From Candidatus Eiseniibacteriota bacterium (GTDB lineage Bacteria; Eisenbacteria; RBG-16-71-46): a stretch of 64,000 nucleotides of DNA. Shown in pieces: positions 22,980 to 55,523 of this stretch. The position numbers were made by a program, and so were the translations under genes. The DNA is taken from positions 1,760,001 to 1,824,000 of the forward strand of contig OY970178.1 of NCBI GenBank assembly GCA_963707915.1, read 5' to 3'. Numbering within the stretch: the stretch's first letter is position 1; the number at the start of each line of letters is the position of its first letter. The notes below the pieces were generated by a model, which was not told where the DNA came from, ran no database searches, and worked only from the letters and a program-made list of their open reading frames with translations.

Positions 22980-24027
22980 CTACGCCCCGAACCAGCGCGC
23001 CACCAGGCTACGGGCGAGCGACAGGTCGTCCGTGCCCTTCACGATCGCGCGGCCGTCGGCGAAGAGCGTGAGCTCGTAGGGTGGCACGCGCAGCCGCACG
23101 ACGAACCCGTTCGCCAGCACCTCGCCGGCCCCACCCGCGGCCCGCGTGCCACGCAGGCGCGCGGCGACCGCGGCGAGGTCGGGCACCGCGCCGCCCGCCG
23201 GCCTCACCAGCACCGCGTCGCGGCCGCACAGGACCTCGGCCGGCTCCGCGCCGCGCTCCAGGAACTCGAAGCGCCGCTCGCCGCAGCAGGGGCAGCGCGG
23301 GTCCCGCGGCGGCAGCTCGACGTGCTGGAAGCGCAGGTCCCAGACGTCCGCGCTCACCATCACCGCAGGCTCGGGGGCCTCGCGGGTGACGAGCCAGCGC
23401 AGCGCCTGTGCCACCTCGAGCGCGGCGATCAGGTGCGCGACGGGGCCGAGGACGCCGACGGTGTCGCAGGTCGGAGTCGAGCCCGGCGGGGGCAACTCGG
23501 GCTGGATGCAGCGGAAGCACGGGGTGCTGCCCGGCACGATCAGCGTGCTCACCCCGTAGCTGCCGACGCAGGCCCCGTGCACCCAGGGCAGGCCCGCGTG
23601 CACGCAGGCGTCGTTGAGCAGGTAGCGGCCCTCGAAGTTGTCGAAGCCGTCCACCACCAGGTCCACGCCCTCGATCAGCCCGGCGAGATTGCCGGCGTGC
23701 AGGTCGGTCGACCACGGGCTCGACCGCGACTTCGGAGTTGATCGCGGCGAGGTGGCGCGCGGCGGCCACGGCCTTGGGGATGCAGTCGCGCGTGTCGGCC
23801 TCGTCGAAGAGCGCCTGCCGCTGGAGGTTCGTGAGGTCGACGACGTCGCGGTCCACGATCCGCAGGAAGCCGACGCCCCCGCGCGCCAGCAGGTTCGCGG
23901 CCTCGGCGCCGAGCCCGCCGCAGCCCAGCAGCAGCACGCGCGCGGCGCGCAGCCGCGCCTGCCCCGCCACCCCGATCGGCGCGTGGAGGATCTGCCGCGA
24001 GTAGCGGTCGTCGGCCGGCGGGCGCAT
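22980..24027 (-). pseudogene. ThiF/MoeB-family adenylyltransferase with one frameshift near 23705 (probably a sequence error)
   Basis: RYSRQI, GCGGLG, DRDVVDLTNLQRQ in one frame; DGFDNF, PCFRC, TCDTVG, CPCC, LFADGRAIVKGT in the other. Confidence 0.85.
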
Positions 24028-24142
24028 CGGACGCTCCTCTCCTGTCATGCCGACATGTTGTCCGGGTCGTCGCCGAGAATCAAGCCGCCCCGGGAGTCCG
24101 GGGCGGCCAGGGCGTTGCCGGGAACACCCCCCGAGCCGGGGA

Positions 24143-25921
24143 CTACGGACACCCGGCCGGTCTCGTGAAGTGCACCGTGATCACGTTCTGGGGGTTCACG
24201 GCCAGCCGGGTGGCGGGGTCGATGCCCTGCACGCAGCGCCCCCGACCCGGGATGGCCTCGCAGTCCACGCAATCGCAGATCTCGATGCTGACCCGGATGT
24301 CGCCCGAGGCGAAGGGGTTCCCAGCCTCTCCACCCGGCTTGAAGGTGACCTCGCGAGAAGCCACGCCGTATGCCCCGACCGGGTACGGATCGCTGCCCGG
24401 CACGAGGTAGGTCCACGAGGTGTCGCGGCCGGCCAGGTTCTTCCCGTAGAGCGTGATGGTGAAGCGCAGCGTCGTCTTCGACACCGGGCCGCCGGCCGTC
24501 GTGTTCGCCGCGTTGGGATCGCAGGGATCGGCGTCCATTCCCAGCAGACGGAAGGTCCAGGTGCAGCTGCCCGACGGATCCGGGAACTCCTGCCCCGCCA
24601 CGGGCACGAAGCTGGCGTTGCTCCGGACCAGCGCCGGCGCCTTGTCCACGTAGAAGGTGATGACCTTGCGCCGCGCGAGCCGTTCGGCTTCCGTGCCGCC
24701 GCCGGCGTCCACGAGGTCGGCGAGGGTGATGGCGTCCCTGATCCGGACGTCCAGGCCGCCGTCGGCGTCCTGCGCGCGCGCCAGGGCGTAGGCCTTCCCC
24801 GCCGCGTACATGCGCCAGTACCCCGCGAGACGCGGCGCACGGAACACCGACGTGGGCTCGAAGACCGGGTAGAGACCGGTCTGGGCCGGGATCATCTTGA
24901 GGCCACCGGGCGTGAGGCGCTCGGCGACGAGCGACCGGAAGCCGACGGGCGAGCCCATGAGGCCCAGCGTCTGGAGTGCGGCGTAGCGCTCCGGGTCCGC
25001 GGCGAAACCGGCCGGCAGCGCCGGGTCCGTGGGATCCACCCGGGGCACGTACTTCGAGTCCTTGTCATAGCCGCCGTTCACGAGCACGACCCACGAGTTC
25101 TGGTGGACCGTGTCCCCTTCCGAGCGGGCGAAGATGCGGTCGCCGTAGATCTCGTAGAACGTCCCGCGGCGGTCGTCTCCGCGAAGCGGCTGCCGCATCG
25201 AGGGCAGGTAGCGGAACGAGTCCGGTCCGAAGTACGCGCGCCCGTCCGGCGGCCAGGCCGTGGCGGTGGTGAAGCGCCCCCAGTCCTTCACGTCCACCGC
25301 GCGAGCCCGCTCGCCGTCGCTCGAGAGCGGCCACAGCCCGGGGATCGGGCCCGCCCACCAGGTGTCGGGGGCGAAGTTCGCGAGGCAGATCAGGGTTTTC
25401 GTGCCTCCGCCCGCCTGCTCCGGCACGGTCACGTGGATGAGGTTGAACCCGGGGACGAGCGTCTGGGTGTCCGGCGGGGCCGGGCGGTCACCTCCCGACT
25501 CCGCGAGCGTGGACACGTCCACGGCTCGAGTCGGGTCGAGATCGGCCTCGAAGGTCGAATCGGCGACCCCGTGCCGCGCACGGAGGGACCGCCACGACCA
25601 GTAGGCAAGGCTGAAGGCCGGCACCGTGTCCCGGGGAGCCACCCCCGGCACGAACTCCTGGGTCAGCCGGAAGACCCGGCGGGGATGGGCGACGGGACGG
25701 GAGTCACGGCCCAGAGTGACGATGGTGCCGACCGCCCGGGCATCGAGGACCCACTTGCGCCCCGACGAGTCGGTACACGAGACACCGGCACCGCCGGTCT
25801 CCGATGCAGGCGGCTGGCTGACGGCCCGGATGGCGGTGGGACGGAGGGGCTTGGTGCACCCCGCGCACCAGGCGGCGACCACGGTCAACAGAACGAGGGG
25901 GATCGTGGGACTCGTACGCAT
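24143..25921 (-). CDS. Hypothetical lipoprotein
   Basis: GGAGGT RBS, hydrophobic N-terminus ending in lipobox-like CAGC; 592-aa ORF with balanced composition; C-terminal CDCVDC cluster. Confidence 0.7.
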   Translation of the reverse strand: MRTSPTIPLVLLTVVAAWCAGCTKPLRPTAIRAVSQPPASETGGAGVSCTDSSGRKWVLDARAVGTIVTLGRDSRPVAHPRRVFRLTQEFVPGVAPRDTVPAFSLAYWSWRSLRARHGVADSTFEADLDPTRAVDVSTLAESGGDRPAPPDTQTLVPGFNLIHVTVPEQAGGGTKTLICLANFAPDTWWAGPIPGLWPLSSDGERARAVDVKDWGRFTTATAWPPDGRAYFGPDSFRYLPSMRQPLRGDDRRGTFYEIYGDRIFARSEGDTVHQNSWVVLVNGGYDKDSKYVPRVDPTDPALPAGFAADPERYAALQTLGLMGSPVGFRSLVAERLTPGGLKMIPAQTGLYPVFEPTSVFRAPRLAGYWRMYAAGKAYALARAQDADGGLDVRIRDAITLADLVDAGGGTEAERLARRKVITFYVDKAPALVRSNASFVPVAGQEFPDPSGSCTWTFRLLGMDADPCDPNAANTTAGGPVSKTTLRFTITLYGKNLAGRDTSWTYLVPGSDPYPVGAYGVASREVTFKPGGEAGNPFASGDIRVSIEICDCVDCEAIPGRGRCVQGIDPATRLAVNPQNVITVHFTRPAGCP

Positions 25922-26021
25922 GACCACCTCCAAGCCCCCGGTCGCTGCGTCATTGGTACGGCTCGACGCTAGCACTCGACATCCGGATGTCAATCGGGAA
26001 GTGGCCCGCGGAACGAGGTAT

Positions 26022-26222
26022 CTACCCCCCGCCGATCAGGTGGATGACCTCCACGACGTCGCCGTCGTGGAGCACGGTGGTGGGGACCTGCTCGCGCTTC
26101 ACCACCCGCTGGTTCACCAGGATGACCCGCAGCGGGAACGTGTAGGTCTTCTCCCGCAGCAGGGCCTCGACGGTGAGGCCCTCGCGGTGGGGATGCGGGT
26201 CGCCGTTGACGGTGAGCGCCAT
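26022..26222 (-). CDS. ThiS/MoaD-family sulfur carrier protein
   Basis: 66 aa, LTVNG...LHDGDVVEVIHLIGGG with C-terminal Gly-Gly. Confidence 0.88.
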   Translation of the reverse strand: MALTVNGDPHPHREGLTVEALLREKTYTFPLRVILVNQRVVKREQVPTTVLHDGDVVEVIHLIGGG

Positions 26223-26224
26223 CG

Positions 26225-28234
26225 TCACTCCGTGACGCCGTGCGCCTTCAGCAGCTCCACGACCCCTTCGACCCGGTCGATGCCGAGGGCGCGGACCTTG
26301 GCGAGCGTCGGGATCCCGTCGGGGGTCCAGCCGCGCCGCTTGTAGACCGCGTCGAGCAGCTTCTGGTAGCGGTCCTCGCGGTACGCGCGCAGCGCCGCGC
26401 GGCGCTGATCGAGCGAGAGCGGCGCGGGGTCCACGCCGGCCTCCTCCTTCAACTGCTTGTCGTAGCGCTCCTGGCGCGACTCGTACTCGGCGGCGGTGAC
26501 CGGGCCCTGCGCGCGATACGGGATCGCGTCGTGCGCGCGGCGGCCGAAGCCCATCTTGAGGTTGAAGATGCGCTGGAAGTTGTAGACCCGCTCGCTCTGC
26601 AGGATGAGGTCCTCGGGCCGGACCTCCTTGCCCGTCATCCCGGCCACGAACTCGCAGTAGCCCTGCACGTGGCGCGGCACCTTGGCCGGCGCGCCGGACT
26701 CGGCGTTGTCCTCGGGCTCGACGTCGTTCCACAGCAGCTTGCACAGCCCGTTCAGGCCGAACCACGTGCGCCACATCGGGAAGTAGTGCAGCGCCTCGGC
26801 CTTGTCCTCGAAGCTCGGGATCTGCTTGTTCACCATGTCCATGAAGATGAGCCAGGCCTCGTCGTGCTGCGGGCCCTTCAGCGCGATGCCGTAGCCGCCC
26901 TGCTGGGCGAGCGACTCCTTGCAGATGTAGCCGGAGTACTCGAGCCCCTTGGCCTCCATGCCGACGTCCTGCAGGAACGCGGGGTCGGCGCCGAAGCGCT
27001 CGGCGAAGATCCGCTTCATCCGCCGCACGCCCTGGCCGGCGAGCAGGCCGAAGCCCTCGCCTCGCGCCATCTGGTGCAGCACCTCGAGCGTGCCGTCGAT
27101 GCTGCCCGGCGAGAGGTCGAGGCCGCCGGTGTGCTCGCGCTGCAGCACGCCGGCCTCGAAGCACTCCATCACGAACGCCATCAGCGTGCCGAAGGAGATG
27201 GTGTCCAGCCCGTAGTGGTCGCAGTAGTAGTTGATCTCGATGATGGCCCAGGGCTCGAAGATGCCGAGGTTGCTGCCGGCGCACGAGACCGTCTCGTACT
27301 CGGGCCCGTCCACCAGCACGGACTTGCCCCGGTCCGGCCCGGTGCGCAGCACGTGACCGTCCACCGCCTTGGCGCAGGCCATGTCGCAGCCCAGGGCGCA
27401 GCCGTCGGCCACGCCCTGCGTGAACAGCGCCTTGAACTTGTCCGAGGCGATGCGCGGCGTGTCGACGTGCTTCCCGTAGCGGTAGTTGTGGACCGGCAGG
27501 AGGTCGTAGTCGTCCATGATCTCGGTCAGGTGCGCGGTGCCGATCTCGCGCATGTGGCACTGGTGCTTGTCCAGCACCAGCACCTCGCGGGTGAGCTCGG
27601 CGCCGGCGCGGCGGATGCGGTCGGCGTCCACCGGGTGGTTCGGGTCCTCGGTGAAGCGGATCGCCCCGGTCGGGCACACGCTGGCGCAGGCCATGCAGCC
27701 CACGCAGGCCGACGACGCCTCGCCGTAGGGCATCGCCACCCGGCGCGACTCGCCGCGCCCCTCGAAGGCCAGCACGTGGTGCCAGACGCCCTCGTCGCAG
27801 AGGCGCACGCACAGGCCGCACAGGATGCAGGCGTTCGGGCTCTCGTTGCGCTGCGGGTGCGCGAAGCGGGGCGCGGCGACGCCGGCCTCGCGCGCCATCT
27901 CCTGCACCACCTTCACCTGGGGCCAGCGCGCCAGCATCATCTCGAGCACCAGCCGGCGGGTGCGCAGGGCGCGCTCGCTGCGGGTGAAGACCTCGACCGG
28001 CTTCTGCAGCGGGTAGTTGCAGGCGGTGACGATGCGCTTGCGGCGCCCCTCGTCCACCTCGACGCTGCAGACGCGGCAGACCCCGTAGGCTTCGACCAGC
28101 GGGCTGTGGCACAGCGCCGGGATCTCCACGCCGGCCTGCTTCGCGGCCGCGAGGATGGTGGTGCCCGGCGCCACCTCGGTCTTCCTGCCGTCGATCGTGA
28201 CCTGGATCATGGCGGGGTTCCTTTCGCCGCTCAT
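26225..28234 (-). CDS. Fusion: HydA/NuoG-like N-terminal Fe-S module ([2Fe-2S] + 2x[4Fe-4S]) joined to aldehyde:ferredoxin oxidoreductase C-terminal domains
   Basis: IPALC..CRVC..TAC; CILCGLCVRLC; CVGCMACASVC; then AOR motifs LPVHN, GCALGCDMAC, GPEYET, CDHYGLDTIS, KGLE, GLCK, YKRRGW..DGIPT. Confidence 0.9.
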   Translation of the reverse strand: MSGERNPAMIQVTIDGRKTEVAPGTTILAAAKQAGVEIPALCHSPLVEAYGVCRVCSVEVDEGRRKRIVTACNYPLQKPVEVFTRSERALRTRRLVLEMMLARWPQVKVVQEMAREAGVAAPRFAHPQRNESPNACILCGLCVRLCDEGVWHHVLAFEGRGESRRVAMPYGEASSACVGCMACASVCPTGAIRFTEDPNHPVDADRIRRAGAELTREVLVLDKHQCHMREIGTAHLTEIMDDYDLLPVHNYRYGKHVDTPRIASDKFKALFTQGVADGCALGCDMACAKAVDGHVLRTGPDRGKSVLVDGPEYETVSCAGSNLGIFEPWAIIEINYYCDHYGLDTISFGTLMAFVMECFEAGVLQREHTGGLDLSPGSIDGTLEVLHQMARGEGFGLLAGQGVRRMKRIFAERFGADPAFLQDVGMEAKGLEYSGYICKESLAQQGGYGIALKGPQHDEAWLIFMDMVNKQIPSFEDKAEALHYFPMWRTWFGLNGLCKLLWNDVEPEDNAESGAPAKVPRHVQGYCEFVAGMTGKEVRPEDLILQSERVYNFQRIFNLKMGFGRRAHDAIPYRAQGPVTAAEYESRQERYDKQLKEEAGVDPAPLSLDQRRAALRAYREDRYQKLLDAVYKRRGWTPDGIPTLAKVRALGIDRVEGVVELLKAHGVTE

Positions 28235-30114
28235 CGGACCAGCACCGCGCCGTCCTTGCAGACGTCCATGCAGGTGCCGCACTGGATGCACTTGTCCTGC
28301 GCGATGGTGTGGAGCTCGCGGCGCACGCCGGTGATCGCGTCGGTCGGACAGACCTTCACGCACGCGGTGCAACCGGTGCAGTCCTCGGTGATGGTGTAGC
28401 GGATGAGCGCCTTGCAGACCCCCGCCGGGCAGCGCCGCTCGCGGATGTGGGCCTCGTACTCGGCGCGGAAGTAGCGCAGGGTCGAGAGCACCGGGTTCGC
28501 CGCGGTCTGCCCCAGGCCGCAGAGCGAGCCGTCGGCCAGCACCGCGCCGAGGTCCTCGAGCAGCGCCAGGTCCTGCTCGCGGCCCTCCCCCGCCGTGATG
28601 CGCGTGAGCACCCCGCGCAGGTTCACCAGGCCCTCGCGGCACGGCGTGCACTTGCCGCACGACTCGTCGCACAGGAAGTCCACGAAGTAGCGCGCCACGT
28701 CCACCATGCAGGTGCGGTCGTCCATCACGATCATGCCGCCCGAGCCCATCATCGAGCCGGCCTCGACCAGCGTGTCGAAGTCCACCGCCAGGTCGAGCTT
28801 CGACTCGGGCAGGCAGCCGCCCGAGGGACCGCCGGTCTGCACCGCCTTGAACGCCCGACCGTCCGGGATGCCGCCGCCGATGTCGAAGACGATCTCGCGC
28901 AGCGTGATGCCCATCGGCACCTCGACCAGCCCCGAGTTGCGGATGTTCCCGACCAGCGAGAACACCTTGGTGCCGCTGCTGCCGCCCCAGGGCGACTTCG
29001 AGACGTCGCCGGTGCCGATCGCGGCGAACCACTCCGGCCCGTTCAGGACGATCTGCGGGACGTTGGCCCAGGTCTCGACGTTGTTGAGCACCGTCGGCAG
29101 GTCGCGGAAGCCGTGCTCCACGGTGTGCACGTACTTCGCCCGCGGCTCGCCTGCGCGGCCCGCCATCGAGGCCATCAGCGCGGTGGACTCGCCGCAGACG
29201 AACGCGCCGGCGCCGCGGTGGACGGTGATGTCGAACGCCATCCCCGCGCCGAGCACGTCCGCGCCCAGCAGCCCCCAATCGCGCGCCTGCGCCAGCGCCC
29301 GGGTCAGGCGCTTCAGCGCCAGCGGGTACTCGTGGCGGATGTAGACGAAGCCCTCGACCGCGCCGATCGCCCGCGCCCCGATCAGCATGCCCTCGATCAC
29401 CGCGTGCGGGTCGGCCTCGACGATGCTGCGGTCCATGAAGGCGCCCGGGTCGCCCTCGTCCCCGTTGCAGACCACGAAGGGGCGCACGCCCTGCGCGCGC
29501 GCCGCGGCGAGGCAGCTCTGCCACTTCACGCCGGCCGGGAACCCGCCGCCGCCGCGCCCGCGCAGCCCCGAGCGGACCAGCCGCTGCACCAGCGCGTCGC
29601 CGTCGAGCCCTTCGCGCAGCACCTTCGCCAGCGCCTGGTAGGCGCCGGTGCGGATCGCGTCGGCGATGTCCTCGGGGTCGATCTTGCCGCGGTTGCGCAG
29701 CGCGATGCACTGCTGCTTGGCGAAGAACTCGATGTCCTTCTCGAGCGGGACCGGCTTGCCGCCGTCCGCCGCGTGGAAGAGGAAGGCCTCGAGCGGCTGC
29801 TGCTTCACGAAGTGCGACTCGATCAGCTCGGGCACGGCCTCGGGCTTGAGGCGCTCGTAGAACACGCCCTCGGGCTGGACCACGCAGATCGGCCCGTGGG
29901 CGCAGAAGCCGTTGCACCCGGTGGCCACCACCTGGATCTCGTCCTGCAGGCCGCGGCGCTCCAGCTCCCGGCGGAAGGCGTCGCGCAGCGGCAGCGACTT
30001 GGCCGAGACGCAGCCGGTGCCGGCGCAGACCATGAGCATGGACTTCCAGCCCGCGTGCCGGCGCTGCGCCTCGTGCGCCAGCGCGCCGAGGTTCTCGAGG
30101 GTCGCCCTAGGCAT
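28231..30114 (-). CDS. HydB/NuoF-like NADH/FMN-binding subunit with extra N- and C-terminal Fe-S domains
   Basis: CAGTGC..GCNGFC, GRGGGGFP, DEGDPGAFMDR, GAFVCGE, NNVET, GGPSGG, ESCGKCTPC..SLC, two C-terminal CxxCxxCxxxC motifs. Confidence 0.93.
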   Translation of the reverse strand: MPRATLENLGALAHEAQRRHAGWKSMLMVCAGTGCVSAKSLPLRDAFRRELERRGLQDEIQVVATGCNGFCAHGPICVVQPEGVFYERLKPEAVPELIESHFVKQQPLEAFLFHAADGGKPVPLEKDIEFFAKQQCIALRNRGKIDPEDIADAIRTGAYQALAKVLREGLDGDALVQRLVRSGLRGRGGGGFPAGVKWQSCLAAARAQGVRPFVVCNGDEGDPGAFMDRSIVEADPHAVIEGMLIGARAIGAVEGFVYIRHEYPLALKRLTRALAQARDWGLLGADVLGAGMAFDITVHRGAGAFVCGESTALMASMAGRAGEPRAKYVHTVEHGFRDLPTVLNNVETWANVPQIVLNGPEWFAAIGTGDVSKSPWGGSSGTKVFSLVGNIRNSGLVEVPMGITLREIVFDIGGGIPDGRAFKAVQTGGPSGGCLPESKLDLAVDFDTLVEAGSMMGSGGMIVMDDRTCMVDVARYFVDFLCDESCGKCTPCREGLVNLRGVLTRITAGEGREQDLALLEDLGAVLADGSLCGLGQTAANPVLSTLRYFRAEYEAHIRERRCPAGVCKALIRYTITEDCTGCTACVKVCPTDAITGVRRELHTIAQDKCIQCGTCMDVCKDGAVLVR

Positions 30115-30658
30115 CGGCGTCCTCCGCCGGGCCCTTCGCCCCCTGCGCGGCCACCGAGCCGGTGTTGCGGTGCCGGCGCATCAGCTTGCCGACCTTGGAG
30201 GAGTCCACCCCGCCGACCAGCTCGGCCCCGAAGGTCACCACCGGCGCCAGCCCGCAGCAGCCCAGGCAGCGCACGCCCTCGAGGCTGTACTTCTGGTCCG
30301 CGGTGGTCTCGCCCGGCTTCACCCCCAGCTCGCGGCCGAAGGCGTCGAGCACCCGCGCCGCGCCCTGCACGTGGCAGGCGGTGCCGGTGCAGACCTGGAT
30401 CGTGGTCTCGCCGCGCGGCACCAGCGAGAACGCCTTGAAGAACGTGGCGATGTGGTAGAGCCGCGCCAGGTCCGCCTGGGTGCGCTCGGCGATGCGCTCG
30501 AGCGCGGCCTTCGGCAGGTGGCGGTAGTGCTTCTGGACGTCCTGCAGCATCTCGACCGCGAACTCGGGGTCCGCGCCCCAGCGGTCCACGATCGAGTCCA
30601 CCGCGAGCACGTCCGGGACGAGCACGGACCGCCCGGCGCCGTTCCCTCCCGCGCTCAT
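30107..30658 (-). CDS. HydC/NuoE-like [2Fe-2S] subunit
   Basis: ATFF..FSL, VCTGTACHVQG, RCLGCCGLAPV. Confidence 0.92.
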   Translation of the reverse strand: MSAGGNGAGRSVLVPDVLAVDSIVDRWGADPEFAVEMLQDVQKHYRHLPKAALERIAERTQADLARLYHIATFFKAFSLVPRGETTIQVCTGTACHVQGAARVLDAFGRELGVKPGETTADQKYSLEGVRCLGCCGLAPVVTFGAELVGGVDSSKVGKLMRRHRNTGSVAAQGAKGPAEDADA

Positions 30659-31437
30659 GGCGCCTCCACCGACATCGCCCAGCGCGGGCGGTTCTTCGCG
30701 CTGCGCGCCACGATCGCCTTGAGGTTCTTGTTCATCATCACGCTGCCCAGCCCGCCGCGGCCGGCCTGCTTGAGGCGCGGTTCGTTGCGCTTCCAGTCGA
30801 AGAACGAGACGTTGATGCAGCCGATCAGCGTGTGGAGCGCGCCGCGGCCCGCCGAGACCACCGAGATGTCCTGCAGCTCGGCCGGCGTGCGCGCGTACAT
30901 GGCGTGCAACTGGCCGGCGACGTCGTAGGAGTCGAGCGCCTCGTGCGGGGCGGTCTCGAGCGTGACGCGGTGCGCGTCGCCGTCGATGACCAGCAGCACG
31001 AACTCCGCGGCCTTGCCGCGCACCTCGAGGGCGTCGAAGCCGGCGAACTTGAGCAGCGGTCCGAAGTGCCCGCCGACGTTGCAGTCCATCACCGAGCTGG
31101 TGAGCGGTGAGATGCCGGTGACCAGGCACTTGCCCGAGCCCGAGAAGTAGGGCGTGCCGGCCAGCGGGCCCGCCGAGAAGTACAGCCCGTTGCGCGGGTC
31201 GTCCCAGGCGATCGGGCCGGGGACCGACTTCCACATCAGGTAGAGGTCGAAGCCCTTGCCGCCCGTGAAGGTGTCCTTCATGTAGGGCGTCACCGGGCGG
31301 ACCTCGATGGTGTTGGCCCCGAGGTCCACGTGCAACGTGCGGTTCGCGTAGCCGCGCTCGACCTCGCCGGGCGGGTAGTCGAGCGCGGCCAGGACACGAT
31401 GGGCCGCCTTCATCTCGTTCAGCGCGATGGGATTCAT
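30655..31437 (-). CDS. Stand-alone aldehyde:ferredoxin oxidoreductase N-terminal domain
   Basis: GY..RTLHVDL, FTGGKG, GPLAG, SPLT, GGHFG..LKFAGFDA, AGRGGLGSVM..KNLKAI; stops shortly after. Confidence 0.9.
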   Translation of the reverse strand: MNPIALNEMKAAHRVLAALDYPPGEVERGYANRTLHVDLGANTIEVRPVTPYMKDTFTGGKGFDLYLMWKSVPGPIAWDDPRNGLYFSAGPLAGTPYFSGSGKCLVTGISPLTSSVMDCNVGGHFGPLLKFAGFDALEVRGKAAEFVLLVIDGDAHRVTLETAPHEALDSYDVAGQLHAMYARTPAELQDISVVSAGRGALHTLIGCINVSFFDWKRNEPRLKQAGRGGLGSVMMNKNLKAIVARSAKNRPRWAMSVEAP

Positions 31438-31676: not shown

Positions 31677-33260
31677 ATGTTCTGCACGCGCTTCAAGAAC
31701 GAGCCCATCTGCGACTACTCCGTCGAGGCCAACGTCCGGGCGGCCGAGCGGGCCATCGCCGCGCTGGAGAAGTCGCTCGGCGGCTACCACCCCGCCGTCA
31801 TCGGCGGCCGCGAGGTCGAGACCGAGAAGAGCATCGTCTCGCTCTGCCCGGCGCAGCCCGACCGCGTGGTCGGCCGGGCGGCCAGCTGCACGCGCACCCA
31901 CGTGGACGAGGCCGTCGCCGGGGCGCGGAAGGCGTTCGCCTCCTGGGCGCGCACCGACCCCGAGACCCGCGCCGAGACGCTGATGAGGCTCGCGGCGCTC
32001 ATCCGCCGCGACCGGTTCGACTTCCTCGCGCTGCTCTCGTTCGAGATCGGCAAGGACTGGTACGAGGCCGACGCCGAGATCGCCGAGGCCATCGACTTCT
32101 GCGAGTACTACGCGCGGCTGGCGGTCCGGCACTTCCAGTACCAGCCGCTGACCCGCATCCCGACCGAGGACAACTGCTTCTTCTACATCCCGCTGGGCGT
32201 CGGCGTGGTCATCGCGCCGTGGAACTTCCCGCTCGCGATCCTCGCCGGCATGACCATGGCCGCCGTGGTGAGCGGCAACGCCGTGCTGGTGAAGCCCTCC
32301 TCCGACACGCCGGTGATCGCCGCGCGCCTCGTCGCCCTGGCGCGCGAGGCCGGCGTGCCCGACGGCGTCATCAACCTGCTGCCCGGCCCGGGCGGCGAGG
32401 TCGGCGACACCCTGGTCACGCACCCGCAGGTCCGCTTCGTGTCGTTCACCGGCTCGGCCGCCGTCGGCCTGCGCATCAACGAGATCGCCTCGAAGCCCGG
32501 CCCGGACCGCCGCTGGATGACCCGTTTCGTCCTCGAGATGGGTGGCAAGGACGCCATCGTCGTGGACGAGACCGCCGACCTCGACGCGGCGGCGAGCGCC
32601 GTGGTGCGCTCGGCCTTCGGTTTCCAGGGGCAGAAGTGCTCGGCCTGCTCGCGCCTGGTCGTGGTCTCGTCGGTCAGGGACCGCCTGCTCGACCTGATCC
32701 TCGAGAAGACCCGGCCGCTGCCCGCCGACCTGCCGTGGAACGGCCCCTGCGTCTTCACCGGCCCGGTGGCGAACGCGAAGGCGCGCGCCGGCATCCTCGA
32801 GGCGATCGAGCGCGGCAAGGCCGAGGCCCGGCTGGTGCACGGCGGGCACGCGCTCGACCGGCCCGGCTATTACCTCGCCCCGACCGTGTTCGACGGCGTG
32901 GCATCGCGCTCGTTCCTCGGCCAGGAGGAGGTCTTCGGCCCGGTGCTGGCCGTGATCGAGGCCGCCGACTTCGACCGCGCGCTCGACATCGCCAACGACA
33001 CGCGCTACGGCCTCACCGGCGCGGTGTTCTCCAGCCGCATCGAGCGGCTCGACCGCGCGAAGCACGAGTTCCATTGCGGCAACCTCTACCTGAACCGCGG
33101 CTGCACCGGCGCGCTGGTGGGCGTGCACCCCTTCGGCGGGTTCAACCTCTCCGGCACCGACTCGAAGGCTGGCGGCCCCGACTACCTGATGAACTTCACG
33201 CAGGGCAAGACCACCTCCGAGCGCATCACCGTGCCGCGCATGCCCGGGATCGGCGTATGA
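31677..33260 (+). CDS. pruA: 1-pyrroline-5-carboxylate (glutamate semialdehyde) dehydrogenase
   Basis: FKNEP, EAIDFCEYY, PWNFP, FTGS, EMGGKD, GQKCSACSR, EEVFGP, PFGGF.LSGTDSKAGGPDYL. Confidence 0.92.
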   Translation: MFCTRFKNEPICDYSVEANVRAAERAIAALEKSLGGYHPAVIGGREVETEKSIVSLCPAQPDRVVGRAASCTRTHVDEAVAGARKAFASWARTDPETRAETLMRLAALIRRDRFDFLALLSFEIGKDWYEADAEIAEAIDFCEYYARLAVRHFQYQPLTRIPTEDNCFFYIPLGVGVVIAPWNFPLAILAGMTMAAVVSGNAVLVKPSSDTPVIAARLVALAREAGVPDGVINLLPGPGGEVGDTLVTHPQVRFVSFTGSAAVGLRINEIASKPGPDRRWMTRFVLEMGGKDAIVVDETADLDAAASAVVRSAFGFQGQKCSACSRLVVVSSVRDRLLDLILEKTRPLPADLPWNGPCVFTGPVANAKARAGILEAIERGKAEARLVHGGHALDRPGYYLAPTVFDGVASRSFLGQEEVFGPVLAVIEAADFDRALDIANDTRYGLTGAVFSSRIERLDRAKHEFHCGNLYLNRGCTGALVGVHPFGGFNLSGTDSKAGGPDYLMNFTQGKTTSERITVPRMPGIGV

Positions 33261-33658: not shown

Positions 33659-33747
33659 GGCGTGCCGGTCCATGAACCGCCGACCGGGAACGGGTGAAGC
33701 CCATGGGCCTCGTGGAGTCGCCGCGTGAACGGGCCGGGCCGGTGGCG

Positions 33748-34977
33748 ATGCTGACCTACCGCGAGGCGTTGGAGCGCGTGCTGGACTCGGCCGCGGCGAG
33801 CCTCGAGCGGCGCGTGCCGCTCGAGGACGCGCTCGGGTTGGTCGCGGCGGCCGGCGTCGTCTGCCCCGGCCCGGTGCCCCCGTTCGACAACTCCGGCATG
33901 GACGGCTTCGCCGTGCGCGCCGCGGACGTCGCGGGCGCGACCGCGCAGACGCCGGTGCGCCTGCGCGTCCTGGAGGACCTGCCCGCCGGCCGCGTCGCGG
34001 AGCACGCGGTCGAGGCGGGCACGGCGCACCGGATCATGACCGGGGCACCCGTTCCCGCGGGCGCCGACGCCGTGGTCCCGGTCGAGGGGACCGCGCCAGC
34101 CGGCGACCACGTCGAGATCCGGCGCGCCGTGCGCGCGGGCGCGAACGTGCGGCGTGCCGGCGAGGACCTCGCGGCCGGCGCGGCCGTGGTGGCGCGGGGC
34201 GACGTCCTGCGCCCCGCCGACATCGGCCTGCTCGCCGTGGCCGGCTGCGCCACCGTGCCGGTCGTCCCGCGGCCCCGGCTCGCCATCGTCACGACCGGCG
34301 ACGAGCTGGTGGACGTCTCGGAGGAGCCCGGGCCGGGGCGCATCCGCGACGCCAACCTGCATGCCCTGCGCGCGCAGGCCCTGGCCTTCGGCGCGCTGCC
34401 CGTCGGGTTCCCGCGCGTGCCCGACCGCCGCGCGGACGTCGTGAGCGCGCTGCGCCGGGCCGTCGCGGCCGCGGACGTCGTCGTGACCACGGGCGGCATC
34501 TCGATGGGCGAGTACGACTGCGTGAAGGACGTGCTCGACGAACTGGGCGCGGAGCGCGTCTTCTGGCGGGTCGCGCAGAAGCCCGCCGGCCCCCTCGGGC
34601 TCTGGCGGCTCGACGGCCGGCCCGTCTTCGGCGTCCCCGGCAATCCCGTCGCCGCGATGCTGGTGATGGAGGAGTACGTGCGGCCGCTGCTGCGCCTGAT
34701 GATGGGCTTCGCGCATCTCTTCCGCCCGGAACGCCACGGCACGCTCGAGACCCCGTGGACCCGGCGCGCCGGCGACGACCGCCTGCACTTCCTGCGGGTC
34801 TCCGTGCGCGCGGAGGCGGACGGGCTGCACGCGCGCCTGTCGGGCCACCAGGGCTCGGGCGTGCTCTCCTCGATGGCCCGCGCCAACGCGCTGGCGCTGA
34901 TTCCCGGGGATGTCGAGGCGGTGCCCGAAGGCGGGCGGGTGGTGCTGCACATGATGGAGGAGACGGAGGATCACTGA
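33748..34977 (+). CDS. moeA: Molybdopterin molybdo/tungsto-transferase
   Basis: PPFDNSGMDGFAV, IMTGAPVP.GADAVV, TGDEL, TTGGISMG..D, GVPGNP, HQGSG. Confidence 0.94.
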   Translation: MLTYREALERVLDSAAASLERRVPLEDALGLVAAAGVVCPGPVPPFDNSGMDGFAVRAADVAGATAQTPVRLRVLEDLPAGRVAEHAVEAGTAHRIMTGAPVPAGADAVVPVEGTAPAGDHVEIRRAVRAGANVRRAGEDLAAGAAVVARGDVLRPADIGLLAVAGCATVPVVPRPRLAIVTTGDELVDVSEEPGPGRIRDANLHALRAQALAFGALPVGFPRVPDRRADVVSALRRAVAAADVVVTTGGISMGEYDCVKDVLDELGAERVFWRVAQKPAGPLGLWRLDGRPVFGVPGNPVAAMLVMEEYVRPLLRLMMGFAHLFRPERHGTLETPWTRRAGDDRLHFLRVSVRAEADGLHARLSGHQGSGVLSSMARANALALIPGDVEAVPEGGRVVLHMMEETEDH

Positions 34978-36714: not shown

Positions 36715-38073
36715 TCACGCTGCCGGGCGCGTGACCGCCGTGCGCGGGCCTCCGTAGCACTTGAGGGCGTGGCGCAGGCGCACGTCGAGCGGGGCGTCGG
36801 GCGGAGCCTCGCAGCGCTCGGCGACGCCGCGCGCCTCGTCCCCGCGCAGCCCGAGCGACTGCAGCCAGGGCACGAGCTCGGCCCGGTGCGGCGCCAACTC
36901 CGGCTTCCCGCTCCGCTCGCGCCGGGTGACCTCCGCCGATCCACCCCTCCCACTCCGCTCCCGTTGCACCGCAGGCCTGCGCCGCGAATCCATGAACCCG
37001 CGCCCGAAGCGCTGCTCGGCCTCGTACTGGTTGTGGGCCCGGCAGCGCAGGCGTAGGCCCCCCACCGTCGCGCGCCCGCCCAGTGCCACCGGCTCGACGT
37101 GGTCGTACTCGAGCCGCGTGCGCGCCTCGCAGCGATGCCCGCCCTCGCCCACGAACGTGCAGCAGCCGCCGTCGCGCTCCCAGACGGCGCGCTTCACGTC
37201 CGCGGGTACGTGACGGGGGCCTTCGCTCGGGCGGCAGGCACAGGGCCGCTCGGCCTTCGCGAACTTCTGCCGCTCGAGCTGCGCGATCAGGGCCTTCAGC
37301 GCCCGGGCGAACACCTCGGCCGGGTCGCCGGAGGGCAGGCTGTGACCCAGCAGGGCCTGGGCGTAGAGCAGGTCGTCGTGCGTCGCCTGGTCCACGGTGA
37401 ACTGGACGGCGTAGCGCCCCGGCGCTAGGGGAGTCACTGGGCGGGTTCGGGTCATCGCCGACGGGGCGGCGGCACCTGCCGAATCGGTTGCCGCAGTGGC
37501 CTCATGTTCAGCAGAACTGAAATTCACTCGCCCCGGGGCGAGTGAAATTGAGTCACACTGAACAAGAGCGCCCGTTTGCGGCGGAGTCGTCGCAGCTCCC
37601 GCCCCGAGGGACTGCTGCTCCCCGGGCCCGACCTCGGACAGCGGCCGAATCGAGCCCGGCAGGTCGGGCCGCGGGAATCGCTCGGCCAACAACTGCTCGA
37701 TCGCCGCCCGGCTCCGGTGCGTCGCCACCGCCAGCAAGTCCTCGGCGTTCTCGGGGGTCAGGTAAGGCGCCAGGGCTCCCAAGCCGCCCAGGTGCAGCCG
37801 ACCGTCGGCCAGCATCCCGTGGATGGCCGGGAACTCGCGGGCCAGCCGCGCCGCGCGGATGCGCTTGTAGGCGCTGTCTTCCGAGAAGCGCAACCGCTCG
37901 ACGCAGTACGCGAACATCGAGGGGTAGCCGGCTTCGGCGTAGAGCCGCCGGGCATCGACCTCGCCAAGGTGGGCGACCAGCAGGGCCGTGGTCGCGCGGT
38001 CCTGCGAGACGAGTGTCCGCAGTTCGCGCAGCAGGGCCTGGTCGGAGACGTGGGACAGTGCGTAGCGATCCAT
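36715..38073 (-). CDS. DUF222-like / HNH endonuclease-domain protein
   Basis: HLGEVDARRLY...GYPSMFAYC; VWERDGGCC, RC, LEYDH, GG, LRLRCRAHN. Confidence 0.8.
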   Translation of the reverse strand: MDRYALSHVSDQALLRELRTLVSQDRATTALLVAHLGEVDARRLYAEAGYPSMFAYCVERLRFSEDSAYKRIRAARLAREFPAIHGMLADGRLHLGGLGALAPYLTPENAEDLLAVATHRSRAAIEQLLAERFPRPDLPGSIRPLSEVGPGEQQSLGAGAATTPPQTGALVQCDSISLAPGRVNFSSAEHEATAATDSAGAAAPSAMTRTRPVTPLAPGRYAVQFTVDQATHDDLLYAQALLGHSLPSGDPAEVFARALKALIAQLERQKFAKAERPCACRPSEGPRHVPADVKRAVWERDGGCCTFVGEGGHRCEARTRLEYDHVEPVALGGRATVGGLRLRCRAHNQYEAEQRFGRGFMDSRRRPAVQRERSGRGGSAEVTRRERSGKPELAPHRAELVPWLQSLGLRGDEARGVAERCEAPPDAPLDVRLRHALKCYGGPRTAVTRPAA

Positions 38074-38292
38074 CGAAGTGACTCCGCGCGGGGGCGGGTC
38101 ACGGGGGTGTGCGAACCTCCTTCTATCACACCCCTTTTCGGCGCGCGCAGATCACCGCACGCCGCGGAGCGCGTCCTCGCGAGCGAACGATGCCGCGGCC
38201 GGGCGCGAAACCACGGCGGCGCGGCACCACCGGCGCGCTGGGACCCGATTGGAACGCCTCACGGGACTCCGACAAGTGCCCGCGCTCTGGGC

Positions 38293-39704
38293 TGTCAAGA
38301 GGAATCACCGGTTCAGACCGGGCACACTGGTAACAGATCAGACCGGGGACATGGGTTACAGCCCGCGGGCATCATGGGTGGTTCGAGGAGGACCACACGA
38401 TGCCCTGGGCGAGGACCGACTGGATGTCTGAACGAGTGAAGTTCATTGCCGCCTACCTGCAGGCGGAGGCCAGCTTCTCCGACTTGTGCCACGACTTCGG
38501 GGTCAGCCGGAAGACGGGGTACAAGTGGGTCCGTCGTTATGAGGCCGACGGGGTCGCGGCCCTCGAGGAGATCTCACGCGCGCCGCACTCTCATCCCAAC
38601 GCCGTCGCCGCCGACCTCGTGCAGGCGATCGTCGCGATCCGACGTCGCCATCCGCGTTGGGGACCACGCAAGGTGCGGGTGGTGCTGAAGCGGGAACGGC
38701 CGCCGGTCGCGCTCCCGGCGGCCAGCACGATCGGCGACATCCTGAGGCGCAGCGGACTGGTTCGCCCGCGCCGGCGAGTCCGGCGCAGCTCACCGTACGG
38801 GGACCGGCTGCGGCAGTACGACGCACCCAACGCCGTCTGGTGTGCCGACTTCAAGGGCCACTTCCCGCTGGGTCGCCGGGGTGAACGCTGTCATCCGCTG
38901 ACCATCAGCGATGGATACAGTCGCCTGCTCCTTCGCTGCCGCGCCCTGCGTCGTCCGCTCACTCAGCATGTCCGGCGCGTCTTCGAGTCCGCTTTCACCG
39001 AATACGGCTTGCCGAGGGCGATCCGCACCGATAACGGGCCGCCGTTCTCGACGCTCGCCCCGGGCGGACTGTCGCGTCTCTCGGTCTGGTGGATCCGACT
39101 CGGGATCCGTCCCGAACGCATCATGCCAGGTCGTCCCGAACAGAACGGGCGCCACGAGCGCATGCATCGCACCTTGAAAGCCGAGACCGCCAGACCGCCG
39201 CGCTCGAGCTTCAGCGCCCAGCAACGCGCGTTCGATCGCTTCCAGACGGAGTACAACCAGGAGCGGCCGCACGAGGCGCTCGGCCAGGAGGTGCCGGCCG
39301 CGCTTTACCGCCCATCGCTTCGCTCGTACCCGCGCGAGCTCCCCGAACCAGAGTACCCGCGACACTTCGAGACCCGGGTGGCCTATCCCAACGGCGTGAT
39401 CACCTTCGGCACCACGCAGTGGTACGTGAGCAACTGCCTCGTCGGCGAACGGGTCGGACTCGAGCCCTGCGACGATGGCCGGTGGCGTGTCCACTTCGGC
39501 TGGGTGCCGATCGGACTGCTAGATCTCAAGCAGGCCACCGACCGCGGACCCCGCCACTTTGGGCGGCTCGAACCCATCGTTGATCCTGCCTTGAGCAGAC
39601 GTCGTCGCCGCCGTTATGGAAGCTAGAATGTGTTACCCATGTGCCCGGTCTGTCCTGTCACCCATGTCCCCGGTTGCTTCAACCCATGTCTCCGGTTGCT
39701 TCAC
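38293..39704 (+). mobile_element. IS481-family insertion sequence (ends approximate)
   Basis: Transposase flanked by inverted arrays of a ~20-bp motif GACCGGG(C/G)ACATGGGT(A/T)ACA at 38316, 38341 and, inverted, at 39631, 39656, 39678. Confidence 0.8.
38400..39626 (+). CDS. IS481-family DDE transposase
   Basis: N-terminal HTH (FGVSRKTGYKW), WGPRK, WCADFKG, RTDNG.PF, QNGRHERMHRTLK, YN.ERPH. Confidence 0.93.
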   Translation: MPWARTDWMSERVKFIAAYLQAEASFSDLCHDFGVSRKTGYKWVRRYEADGVAALEEISRAPHSHPNAVAADLVQAIVAIRRRHPRWGPRKVRVVLKRERPPVALPAASTIGDILRRSGLVRPRRRVRRSSPYGDRLRQYDAPNAVWCADFKGHFPLGRRGERCHPLTISDGYSRLLLRCRALRRPLTQHVRRVFESAFTEYGLPRAIRTDNGPPFSTLAPGGLSRLSVWWIRLGIRPERIMPGRPEQNGRHERMHRTLKAETARPPRSSFSAQQRAFDRFQTEYNQERPHEALGQEVPAALYRPSLRSYPRELPEPEYPRHFETRVAYPNGVITFGTTQWYVSNCLVGERVGLEPCDDGRWRVHFGWVPIGLLDLKQATDRGPRHFGRLEPIVDPALSRRRRRRYGS

Positions 39705-50842: not shown

Positions 50843-51531
50843 TCATGGGTGAACAACCAGGCCCCGCCGGCGAGGATCAGGAGGCCGCGACCACGCGCAG
50901 CCAGCGGGTCGCGGTCTGGAACCGGCCCGGACGGGCGAGCGCCGCGGCCGCGCCGACCGAGGTGCCGGCCACCAGCAGCAGCAGCGAGTGCCCGAGCCCG
51001 TAGGCGAACAGCCGCGCGCCGCGCGGCGCGCCAATCCACGGGACCAGGCCGGCGCAGCAGCACCGGCCCGGTGCACGGCAGCGAGACGATGCCGAATACG
51101 AAGCCCAGCACGAACGCGCCCAGCGCCCCCGCGGCGCGACGCCGGGCCGGCGGCAGGGGGATCCCGGGAAGGCGCAGCCAGCCGAGCAGGTGCGGCGCGG
51201 TGAAGGCGCACACGGCCAGCAGCACGTAGCGCCACCAGGGCGTGCCCAGGACGGCCCTCGCGCCCGAGAGGACGGAGAAGAGCAGGGCCAGCTCGAGCGC
51301 GAAGCCGCCGACGAAGAGCAGGGAGAAGCCCAGGGTGCGCCGCCAGGGGCGCTCGCTCGCGCCGCGCCCGACCAGGCCGGCCGAGAAGCCGACCATGAGC
51401 GGGACCATGGCCAGCACGCACGGGTTGAGCGCGGTGAGCGCGCCGCCGAGGAACGCGGCCAGCGGCGCCAGCGCGGGGCTGTGGGCGATGACCGCGGCCA
51501 GTTGCTCGCTCAGGCTCTCCAGGACGTCCAC
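50843..51531 (-). pseudogene. CcdA/DsbD-like cytochrome c biogenesis membrane protein, frameshifted; 3' end approximate
   Basis: LNPCVLAMVP and SLPCTGPVL redox cysteines; frame lost after about 51060. Confidence 0.75.
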
Positions 51532-51547
51532 GCGTCCCCCGCTCCCG

Positions 51548-51957
51548 CTACTTCGCCGCGGGGCGCAGGGCCACGCCGAGACTGTCCTTGAAGATCCGCT
51601 CGATCTCCTCGCGGGAGAAGAAGCCCTCGTGGCGGAATCGCTCGCGGCCGGTCCGGTCGAAGAAGACCTGCGTGGGGATCAGGCGGATGCCGTACGGCTT
51701 GCCCGCCTGCGGCTCCTTCCAGACGTCGATGAACTGCACGTCCACCGCGCCGGCGTAGTCCACCCGGAGCGCCTCGAGGATGGGGGCCATGCGCTTGCAC
51801 GGGATGCACTTCCCCGCGCCCAGGTCCACGAGGCGCGGGAGCGCGCGACGGGCGGGGCGGGCTTCGGGGCCTTGCGGGCGAGGGCGGGCACGGCGGTGAT
51901 GAGCGCCAGGCTCACGAGCAGCAGCGCGATGCGTCCGGTGCGACCTGTCACTGGCAT
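51548..51957 (-). pseudogene. Exported thioredoxin-family protein, frameshifted near 51845
   Basis: Signal peptide in one frame; LVDLGAGKCIPCK..IPTQVFFD..HEGF in another. Confidence 0.8.
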
Positions 51958-52079
51958 CCTCCTCGGGACTCGGCGTTCGGGGCTCGAGCGGCGACTCGAT
52001 CGCCGACACCGCGGCGGCGCGTCCCGTCCGGCGCATCGAACGATCCGCGGACCGCGCGCCCGGCAGGCCGCGGAGCCTC

Positions 52080-52126
52080 TTGACGACCGGGCGCGAGGAT
52101 ACTACATTTCGTCACATGGCGAAATG
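52080..52126 (+). promoter_or_regulatory. Sigma70 promoter with overlapping ArsR-type operator
   Basis: TTGACG (52080) - 17 bp - TACATT (52103); palindrome CATTTCGTCA-ca-TGGCGAAATG at 52105-52126. Confidence 0.7.
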
Positions 52127-52131
52127 GCAGG

Positions 52132-52609
52132 ATGAACATGCTGCTTGAGCTGGAGGCGGCCCTCAAGGCGGCCGGCGACCCGACCCGGACCCGCATCCTG
52201 AAGCTGCTGGAGGCGGGCGCTGTGCGTCTGCCAGGTGCAGGCGGTGCTGGGGCTCGCGCCGTCGACGGTCTCGAAGCACCTGACGCTGCTCAAGGCCGCG
52301 GGCTCGTGACCGACCGGCGCGACGGCCGCTGGATCCACTACGCGCTCGCCGCGGAGGAGCGCAATCCCTACGCCCGCGCGGTGCTGGCGCTGCTGCGCGG
52401 GCCGCTCGACCGCGACCCGCGGTGCTCGAGGACCGCCGGCGGCTGCGCAGGGTGAAGGCCGTCCCGGTCGAGACGCTGTGCGCCCTGCCGCCGGCCCGGC
52501 GGGCGCCGTCGCCTCTCGTGCAGGTCGGGACGCCCCGCACCGCGCGCCGGCGCCGGCGCGCGTCGCCCGCGCGGCGCCCGCCCGCCGGCGCGGACCTCCG
52601 CATGCCTGA
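52132..52609 (+). pseudogene. arsR: ArsR/SmtB transcriptional repressor, frameshifted; end approximate
   Basis: KAAGDPTRTRILKLL; LCVC..STVSKHL in a shifted frame; RRDGRWIHY. Confidence 0.75.
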
Positions 52610-53035
52610 GCGCCTCCCCCGCCTGCTCTTCGTCTGCGTCGAGAACTCCTGCCGCTCGCAGATGGCCGAGGGCTTCGCGCGCGCGCTGGGCAGGGGACGG
52701 GTCGCCGCGTTCAGCGCGGGCTCGCGCCCCTCGGGCCGGTGAACCCGCGCGCGATCCGGTTCATGGGCGAGCAGGGCATCGACCTCTCGGCCCAGCGCTC
52801 GAAGGGGCTCGACGAGCTGCCGGCGGGACCCTGGGACAACGTCGTCACGATGGGCTGCGGCGACGCCTGCCCGCACCTGCCGGCCCGCGCACCGGCGGGA
52901 CTGGGACCTGCCGGATCCGAAGCACCTCGACGACGAGGGCTTCCGGGCGGTCCGCGATCGCATCGCGTCCTGGTCCAAGGACTCATCGACGAGGCGGCGC
53001 CCGACGGCTCCGCCGAAGCGAGCACCGAGGACTGA
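52602..53035 (+). pseudogene. arsC: Arsenate reductase (LMW-PTP type), frameshifted
   Basis: [38 protein letters not shown] across frames. Confidence 0.85.
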
Positions 53036-53064
53036 CGAACGACACTCCACCCGGGAGTCACGAC

Positions 53065-54153: not shown

Positions 54154-54161
54154 GACCACCG

Positions 54162-55203: not shown

Positions 55204-55255
55204 TGTGATGTACTGCCTTCCGCCGTCCGGAAGGCCATTCCGAAGGGAGACGACG

Positions 55256-55489
55256 ATGACCCGGATCGAGGTGCTCGGTCCCGGCTGCGCCAACTGCGAG
55301 CGGCTCTACCGGAACACCGAACGCGCCGTGAAGGAACTCGGGCTCGATTGCGAACTCGAGAAGATCACCGACCTCAACGTCATCATGGGCTACCGCATCA
55401 TGTCCACGCCCGGACTCGTGGTCGACGGCGTGGTCCGGTTCTCCGGGCGGGTGCCCTCGGTCGAACAGTTGAAGGAGATGCTGTCCTGA
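55256..55489 (+). CDS. Small redox-active disulfide protein (MTH895/thioredoxin-like)
   Basis: IEVLGPGCANC, MSTPGLVVDG, GRVPS; AAGGGAG RBS. Confidence 0.88.
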   Translation: MTRIEVLGPGCANCERLYRNTERAVKELGLDCELEKITDLNVIMGYRIMSTPGLVVDGVVRFSGRVPSVEQLKEMLS

Positions 55490-55523
55490 GCGACTCCGTG
55501 CCCCCCAGACGGGACTCCCGGCC

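Follow-up and report, generated by a model that had tools for sequence, protein, structure and literature searches.

A tungsten-type aldehyde oxidoreductase predicted to be split over two chains by an inserted BfuABC-like module in a Candidatus Eiseniibacteriota genome

The window analyzed here comprises 64,000 nucleotides of a Candidatus Eiseniibacteriota genome (assembly GCA_963707915.1, contig OY970178.1, positions 1,760,001 to 1,824,000 of the forward strand) that was obtained as a single contig of 3.6 Mb, 94.8% complete. On its minus strand, five open reading frames (ORFs) in the order WorN / BfuC / BfuB / BfuA::WorC / ThiS appear to encode a tungsten-type oxidoreductase of the WOR/AOR (aldehyde oxidoreductase) family, the catalytic subunit of which is divided by an inserted BfuABC-like module. 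WorN (P0001, 260 residues, 30655..31437) corresponds to domain 1 of the WOR/AOR large subunit and matched Pfam AFOR_N only (E 7e-48). BfuC (P0002, 183 residues, 30107..30658) was recognized as HydC/NuoE-like by PF01257 and by motifs, with C90/C95/C131/C135 as C1 [2Fe-2S] ligands, and BfuB (P0003, 627 residues, 28231..30114) as HydB/NuoF-like by domain and motif matches and by PDB 9MQX_B. The 669-residue BfuA::WorC fusion (P0004, 26225..28234) carries Fer2/Fer4 and then AFOR_C according to Pfam; its BfuA part spans residues 1-196 (27647..28234) and its WorC part, WOR domains 2 and 3, residues 197-669 (26225..27646; AFOR_C, E 1e-90). The fifth gene (P0005, 66 residues with a GG end, 26022..26222) scored above the TIGR01683 cut-off as a ThiS/MoaD-like sulfur carrier. 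Such a ThiS-like WorX has been described for WOR operons (PMC13328260; papers are cited by PMC number throughout and for their accessible portions) and likely serves cofactor making rather than being a subunit.

Coordinates, strand and domain make-up of the five genes, as given by an initial annotation made from the sequence alone, were borne out by ORF and Pfam/TIGR matches. The overlapping stops and starts that it reported were present at the N/C, C/B and B/A junctions but not at thiS, the ATG of which lies two bases past the BfuA::WorC stop. No promoter or terminator consensus was found, and the whole genome holds no AFOR_N or WorC match besides those of the operon. The nearest named relatives were metagenome-assembled genomes (MAGs) labeled Candidatus Eisenbacteria (86-93% identity); all five operon genes are intact and 93-95% identical to those of a relative.

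The two WOR parts were tiled on an intact reference protein, L028 (716 residues). Residues 10-250 of P0001 aligned with residues 6-246 at 50% identity and residues 197-658 of P0004 with residues 248-709 at 62% identity, the halves together tiling L028 with a single residue left over; L029 and L031 gave the same result. The split point is the linker between WOR domains 1 and 2, and in the domain test for the WOR family both AFOR_N and AFOR_C were found to be encoded, each on its own chain. Following mapping on 1AOR and 8C0Z, the WorC [4Fe-4S] ligands were assigned to C279, C283, C287 and C498 (spacing Cx3Cx3C) and its second shell to T233, E314, Y436 and H457, equivalent to Thr243/Glu313/Tyr427/His448 of Pyrococcus furiosus AOR; the EYE motif is E312-Y313-E314. 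These are the four second-shell residues of aldehyde-oxidizing AORs, and BamB and YdhV are without them (PMC12096430).

Conservation was examined along both chains. Twenty-four key BfuA/WorC residues, namely 12 BfuA cysteines and, in WorC, T233, E312-Y313-E314, Y436, H457, D339/D344 and the four cluster cysteines, were invariant in 113/113 aligned fusions and in 13/13 further loci. AOR structures have two DxxGx(C/D) pterin-binding motifs. The DxxGxD assignment of the initial annotation could be kept for the first, which is canonical in WorC (D339, D344), but the second position reads G493-L-N-G-L-C498, with Gly for P. furiosus Asp489 in 105/113 homologues and also in intact relatives. On the other chain, WorN N120 (Asn93, the Mg ligand), K103, K223, Q224 and R227 were invariant in 123/123 sequences. 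As far as these residues tell, WorN carries the Mg/pterin-phosphate side of the predicted cofactor site. Three traits, Cx3Cx3C, Lys for Arg76/Arg182 and Gly for Asp489, are common to split and intact long WORs.

An AlphaFold2 (AF2) model of WorN (pLDDT 90, pTM 0.91) resembled WOR structures at TM ~0.70 in all nine matches at E <= 0.001. The model of BfuA::WorC (pLDDT 88, pTM 0.85) matched 1B25, 9G7J, 9MQX_D and 9MQX_A best, with TM ~0.5 to the AOR/FOR fold, and its high pTM suggests that BfuA and WorC may be held in a defined orientation. Tiling and conserved residues support the reading, already made in the initial annotation, that both halves are one WOR from one clade; WorN would dock on WorC and close the predicted bis-pterin site between two chains.

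The inserted module was compared with known Bfu and Hyd subunits. In the BfuA part, 12 cysteines fit A1 [2Fe-2S] and A2 and A4 [4Fe-4S] only, in 113/113 homologues; the His-ligated A3 motif and the H-cluster domain are absent from it, as had been claimed, and the HydA match stops at residue 197. Identity with [FeFe]-hydrogenase HydABC was rejected since there is no H-cluster domain. The best PDB match of BfuA was Acetomicrobium mobile WorA (9MQX_A, E 1e-36), ending at its residue 190/247. This is ahead of the parts of WorA that recruit WorS, a zinc finger and an adaptor helix (PMC12318220); here, the WOR domains take their place.

BfuB contains the ligands of an N-terminal B5 [2Fe-2S], of B1, of B2/Zn and of C-terminal B3/B4 [4Fe-4S], together with an FMN/NAD(P) site. 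AFM was located at 225-227, the diagnostic Phe at F305 and GGPSG at 428-432; these three are marks of bifurcating beta subunits (PMC8880783, PMC7311640, PMC9304861). The features of bifurcating subunits noted initially were therefore recovered, except that KVF does not hold the diagnostic Phe, which was mapped instead to F305 in GAFVCGES (F282 in PMC8880783, 80 residues after AFM). Three control NuoF-like rows differ, having TFK, Tyr and GGASG and no B3/B4. Judged by its sequence, BfuB has every published mark of a bifurcating beta subunit. Residues 200-627 matched A. mobile WorB (9MQX_B) best in the PDB, with CGES and PRxKYxH common to both; HydB of T. kivui likewise has CGES. The CGES position can set the preference for NAD versus NADP. 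NADP specificity was nevertheless not deduced from the Glu to Ser change, since the NAD-using WorB has the same Ser.

The gene order was sought in other genomes, as the initial annotation had proposed, and recurs there. Among 30 genome loci with WorN, the four-gene order was seen in full in 9 and up to a contig end in 3; another 3 have other split forms, 11 encode an intact WorL and 4 were too short to class. Assembly-type breaks occur inside genes in 4 of the 9 full loci (L011, L014, L019 and L024). Two of the other split forms read WorN::BfuC / BfuB / BfuA::WorC. The third, L023:8001-11255, reads WorN / BfuA::WorC / thiS with no bfuBC between, and a long tail of Lys/Ala repeats closes its fusion; several BfuB homologues lie elsewhere in that genome. 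The order is not peculiar to this assembly, being found in independent genomes and on contigs that span the junctions: short-read contigs from an RNA library, ~91-94% identical, cover N/C/B (29428-30756), B/A together with the A-WorC junction (26843-28659), and WorC/thiS. These contigs come from relatives; they show gene order and not transcription. The exact strain of the window was not present in any sequencing run (best share 0.16).

Among the best 120 homologues of P0004, 119/120 combined Fe-S domains with AFOR_C and 0 had AFOR_N, and all of the best 120 homologues of the fused N-protein (120/120) combined AFOR_N with NuoE; both sets were ranked by score, which favors such fusions, and are not frequencies. 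The latter matches tie WorN covalently to the module. The split family amounts to at least 119 and at least 120 distinct 90%-clusters for its two fusion proteins, which are annotated as '(2Fe-2S)-binding protein' or 'NADH:ubiquinone oxidoreductase subunit E'. When metagenomes were scanned by conserved WorC motifs, the best 80 of 584 loci comprised 70 intact, 3 split and 7 cut ones; in this clade, the intact form is thus the common one and the split form a minority branch. A WorS-like gene was present at 24/109 loci, every one with an intact WorL. MAGs carrying the split form are labeled Eisenbacteria, Myxococcota, Planctomycetota, Bacteroidetes, Elusimicrobia, Aminicenantes, Fermentibacteria, Cloacimonetes and Calditrichia, and no cultured carrier was found among 10 clusters looked up. 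One BfuA::WorC fusion, P0252 (651 residues), has degenerate-looking EYE, Tyr and His motifs.

In the phylum of the window, the clade occurs in 28/201 genomes. Twenty regions were fetched, 4 intact and 16 split, the latter consisting of 3 four-gene loci, 1 three-gene locus, 1 cut locus and, for the rest, triple-fusion types. Five of these encode WorN::BfuC::BfuB proteins of ~1,080 residues (L135, L137, L138, L140 and L149; one more has its N part cut off), where the whole enzyme would consist of two chains. Three others (two more have similar cut tails) are flavin-less, without B5, the FMN domain and B3/B4: L142:7059-9257, L144:6827-9106 and L146:8960-11047 keep only the SLBB-like part and the B1 [4Fe-4S] of BfuB, and each adjoins an intact BfuA::WorC. 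The 24 key residues were kept in all 13 of the 16 split phylum loci that were tested, flavin-less ones included. Furthermore, BfuB at L017:4464-6338 and L026:8585-10474 is without the DEGDPGAFMDR flavin loop and is possibly losing its NAD/FMN function. The 'four-subunit' description of the initial annotation thus fits this sub-clade, but relatives have three or two chains and some are without the flavin domain or BfuBC.

The N-half and C-half trees of 20 paired loci contained the same main groups. When rooted on ~600-residue WORs, in quick LG+G reconstructions of hand-picked row subsets that carried long-branch warnings, intact long WORs diverged first and split forms were nested. Split N-halves fell on one side of a branch with support 77 and split BfuBs formed one clade with support 92, the latter against only 6 outside rows. 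The distance from the last WorN strand to the first BfuC motif was 51-57 residues in 111/120 fusions (9 were unmatched by the pattern) and 49-57 codons in 12/12 four-gene loci, so that scarcely anything beyond a stop-start separates the fused from the unfused forms; the four-gene and fused types are sister clades. Most likely, the split goes back to a single event in which a bfuC-bfuB-bfuA cassette entered an intact long-WOR gene, with fusions, fissions and losses afterwards. Two results count against a single origin: one C-half tree places two intact rows within the split group, and another, free C-half tree needs 4 changes, one clade being merely not rejected (AU test, p 0.4). The intact long WORs grouped with split forms by C-half trees are P0248 and P0249, the latter (862 residues, from an uncultured Cloacibacillus cluster) with a 120-residue insertion in domain 2/3. 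Reversion or recombination is a possible cause of their placement.

A bifurcating NAD/ferredoxin aldehyde oxidoreductase has already been purified and solved, namely WorABCSL of A. mobile (PDB 9MQX; PMC12318220), a precedent absent from the initial annotation; the architecture is therefore novel and bifurcating aldehyde oxidation is not. This Class IV WOR, of Type 2 Wor-Bfu (PMC12318220, PMC13328260), likewise joins a WOR fold to BfuABC. It shares with the split enzyme a BfuA with A1/A2/A4 and no A3, the nearest BfuB with CGES and PRxKYxH, the ThiS-like WorX and a predicted electron entry at A4. Here, however, WorL is in two, with domains 2-3 fused to BfuA; WorS, the zinc finger and the adaptor helix are lacking, so there is no (SL)3 nanowire; and the order is L(N)-C-B-A::L(C)-X instead of SLCBA or CBASL. 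With only 19% identity to WorL, the WOR part comes from another clade. When Class IV tests were applied, the domain sets of WorA, WorB and WorC were found, but a single-chain WorL and the operon order were not. A WorS with four [4Fe-4S] is absent from the operon, and WorS-like genes were seen only beside intact WorL.

The nearest Bfu type is Type 1 (FeFe-HydABC, Nfn-, Fdh- and F420-Bfu; PMC9304861), from which the present enzyme differs in that BfuA bears only two of the three catalytic domains, the remaining one being either a chain of its own or fused to BfuC; the accessible part of PMC9304861 lists no Type 1 Wor-Bfu member. Single-chain AOR/FOR proteins (1AOR and 1B25 from P. furiosus, 9G7J from C. 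autoethanogenum, 8C0Z from A. aromaticum) have the same three-domain fold, Thr/Glu/Tyr/His second shell, EYE, first DxxGxD and Asn for Mg. By contrast, the enzyme here has two chains, Cx3Cx3C instead of Cx2Cx3C, about 100 residues more, Lys at Arg76 and Arg182, and Gly at Asp489. Intact 'long WORs' of ~700-740 residues (Anaerolineales, Heimdallarchaeota and many metagenomes) are 50-65% identical over both halves and have the same motifs and often ThiS/ThiF, but are one chain and often have an upstream WorS. Class II benzoyl-CoA reductase BamB with BamGHI also links a WOR fold to a BfuABC-like module; BamB has a Cys metal ligand and is without the second-shell residues (PMC12096430). Identity with BamB was rejected, since T/E/Y/H are kept and BamCDE-like genes are not adjacent.

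The open literature yielded no account of a WOR that is split or fused to BfuA, although the datasets of PMC13328260 may hold members of the clade. The accessible parts of PMC9304861, PMC13328260, PMC12096430 and PMC12318220 nowhere use the words 'split', 'fused' or 'fusion' with this meaning, and those of PMC11291895 and PMC13689815 added nothing on the subject. The 2026 WOR classification in PMC13328260 counted ~100 bifurcating WORs and admitted only proteins with both domains, a rule by which it would miss the split family. The novelty lies in the layout, in which the catalytic subunit, from a ~720-residue WOR clade, is split, WorS is missing and BfuA is fused directly to the pterin domains; the reaction was already known.

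The genes flanking the operon were examined for cofactor supply. In L011, the 93%-identical relative, tupABC lies between thiS and moeB. In the window, this stretch is replaced by a 616-residue gene without a Pfam match (24143-25993, minus strand), and by comparison with this relative a remnant of ~40 bases like the tupC 3' end is left (24045..24085, minus strand). The 616-residue gene has a 50%-identical paralogue at G000:C1:2944734-2946347. It is followed by a moeB/thiF-like gene (22980..24048, minus strand), in which ThiF is read in two frames owing to a one-base frameshift when aligned with the in-frame copy of L011. As tup genes stand at the operons of relatives (also L024, L150 and, on the other side, L019), the metal of the family is probably tungsten. 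Three observations weigh against this for the present strain: no tupA or tupB match was found in its genome, tupA is in only 2/8 genus genomes, and the frameshifted moeB is the only such match in the genome (tblastn). In other genus members, too, thiS runs straight into moeB without tup. Heme-copper oxidase subunit I (COX1) lies in five frame pieces (G000:C1:1399300-1400573), a pseudogene or assembly indels, and the moeB indel may accordingly be an assembly error. Genes for moaE, two moeA, RnfD and a 79-residue ferredoxin are present. One moeA, for metal insertion into the pterin, is located at 33694..34977 (plus strand) and is kept beside the operon in close relatives. The divergent neighbor of the operon (31677..33260, plus strand) encodes P5C (L-glutamate gamma-semialdehyde) dehydrogenase, scoring 699 bits with NF002852 versus a cut-off of 648; this gene is adjacent also at L011, L013 and L024, and a 53%-identical copy lies downstream at L045.

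Gene order, complementary halves, in-frame fusion of BfuA to WorC and conservation of ligand and catalytic residues were observed directly. From these, we infer that the split WOR is likely a WorS-less bifurcating enzyme reducing NAD(P)+ and ferredoxin together. An aldehyde would be oxidized to the acid at a W-bis-pterin held between WorN, giving the Mg/phosphate ligands, and WorC, giving Thr/Glu/Tyr/His and the [4Fe-4S]. Electrons would pass from W to the WorC [4Fe-4S], then via A4, A2 and A1 to BfuBC, with BfuA doing the job of WorS in WorABCSL. In line with Eq. 1 of PMC12318220, the oxidation of two aldehydes would thereby reduce one NAD(P)+ and two ferredoxins, and the reduced ferredoxin may be re-oxidized by Rnf. 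Through the fusion, each flavin would be tied to a single pterin site, without a nanowire.

Several facts speak against this reading. The WOR part is only 19-32% identical to solved AORs and no member of the clade has been characterized, so that any substrate would be conjectural. In addition, the WOR residues are intact where the FMN domain, B5 and B3/B4 are lost (L142, L144, L146), L023 has no adjacent bfuBC, and L017 and L026 are without the DEGDPGAFMDR loop; the enzyme can evidently persist without bifurcation, and these relatives are the strongest evidence that it is optional in the family. A split WOR that is not tightly bifurcating, with BfuA as a built-in wire in place of WorS, NAD(P)+ alone or ferredoxin alone as acceptor and BfuBC as an accessory, would account for the BfuA::WorC fusions kept at all these loci, the two flavin-less regions with cut tails included. 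Bifurcation is, moreover, thermodynamically unneeded for aldehyde oxidation (PMC12318220). For the window we nonetheless hold this to be unlikely: its BfuB, like most of its relatives', keeps B1-B5 and all three diagnostic motifs, and the nearest solved BfuB sits in an enzyme requiring both NAD and ferredoxin (PMC12318220). As the four-gene form is one of a series of variants, bifurcation is likely here and dispensable in some relatives. Operation in reverse, with NAD(P)H and reduced ferredoxin confurcated to turn carboxylic acids into aldehydes, was given little chance. AORs are reversible (PMC9295118), Bfu enzymes are described as such (PMC9304861), and the Rnf of this genome can make reduced ferredoxin; but admixture of NADH makes acid reduction harder than ferredoxin alone (Wor -560, Fd -500, NAD -280 mV; PMC9304861), and among annotated split loci only L023 has an alcohol dehydrogenase nearby.

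A further reading is compatible with bifurcation and concerns the substrate, which would be a specific semialdehyde derived from an amino acid, with glutamate-5-semialdehyde (from proline, ornithine or arginine) as the likeliest; the enzyme would then be an energy-conserving catabolic counterpart of P5C dehydrogenase and not a detoxifier of broad range. The P5C dehydrogenase genes beside the five loci named above are a weak lead to this; P5C dehydrogenase was also the best family, below cut-off, for the aldehyde dehydrogenases near intact WorSL at L132 and L133. However, most split loci are without the gene (L014-L019, L021-L023, L025, L026 and the fused loci of the phylum), a single inherited block may explain the upstream cases, and the aldehyde dehydrogenases at L057 and L102 belong to other types. 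No proline dehydrogenase family was recognized among neighbors recurring at >=3 of 109 loci (clusters judged by eye), and no literature support for a glutamate-5-semialdehyde WOR was found; on balance we hold this substrate to be unlikely. It is very improbable that the family is functional but the enzyme of this strain is falling into disuse through lack of cofactor. Such decay would agree with the replaced tupABC, the tupC remnant and the frameshift in the sole moeB match, but not with five intact genes so close to those of the relative, nor with moaE and two moeA in the genome; thiS-moeB without tup is found in other genus members, and the broken COX1 again allows for assembly indels. Frameshifts elsewhere in the assembly could also make the split itself an artefact of assembly or gene calling. 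That explanation has a negligible chance and is refuted by recurrence in many independent genomes; the halves are separated by 3 kb of intact genes, and short-read contigs of a relative bridge N/C/B and B/A::C.

Taken one step further, the probable bifurcating split WOR could be a second, independently evolved bifurcating tungsten enzyme, with the Bfu module as an inserted super-domain, an inter-chain pterin site wired directly to A4, a dedicated catabolic aldehyde (possibly glutamate-5-semialdehyde) and a natural deletion series; this combined proposal is tentative, and we would sooner expect some part of it to fail. The mechanism of BfuABC bifurcation is still unsettled, and 9MQX, the sole aldehyde-linked member with a structure, forms a flexible 1:3 nanowire complex. 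An enzyme predicted to be 1:1 and made of two to four chains, with natural variants that are devoid of FMN, B5 and B3/B4 but retain the catalytic half, would be simpler to test. If true, the deletion series (four, three or two chains, flavin-less, BfuBC-less) would let one test which parts of BfuBC are needed for bifurcation. The split family is, besides, a blind spot of WOR classification by both domains.

Some minor observations were made around these loci. The MAG of L011 contains a second, truncated operon start (L012), due to strain mixture or assembly duplication. In the window, ORFs at 36715-39626 and ~51500-56400 resemble, by eye, an HNH-type protein, an IS481-like transposase and what we take to be a fragmented arsenic-resistance block (ArsR, ArsC and permeases).

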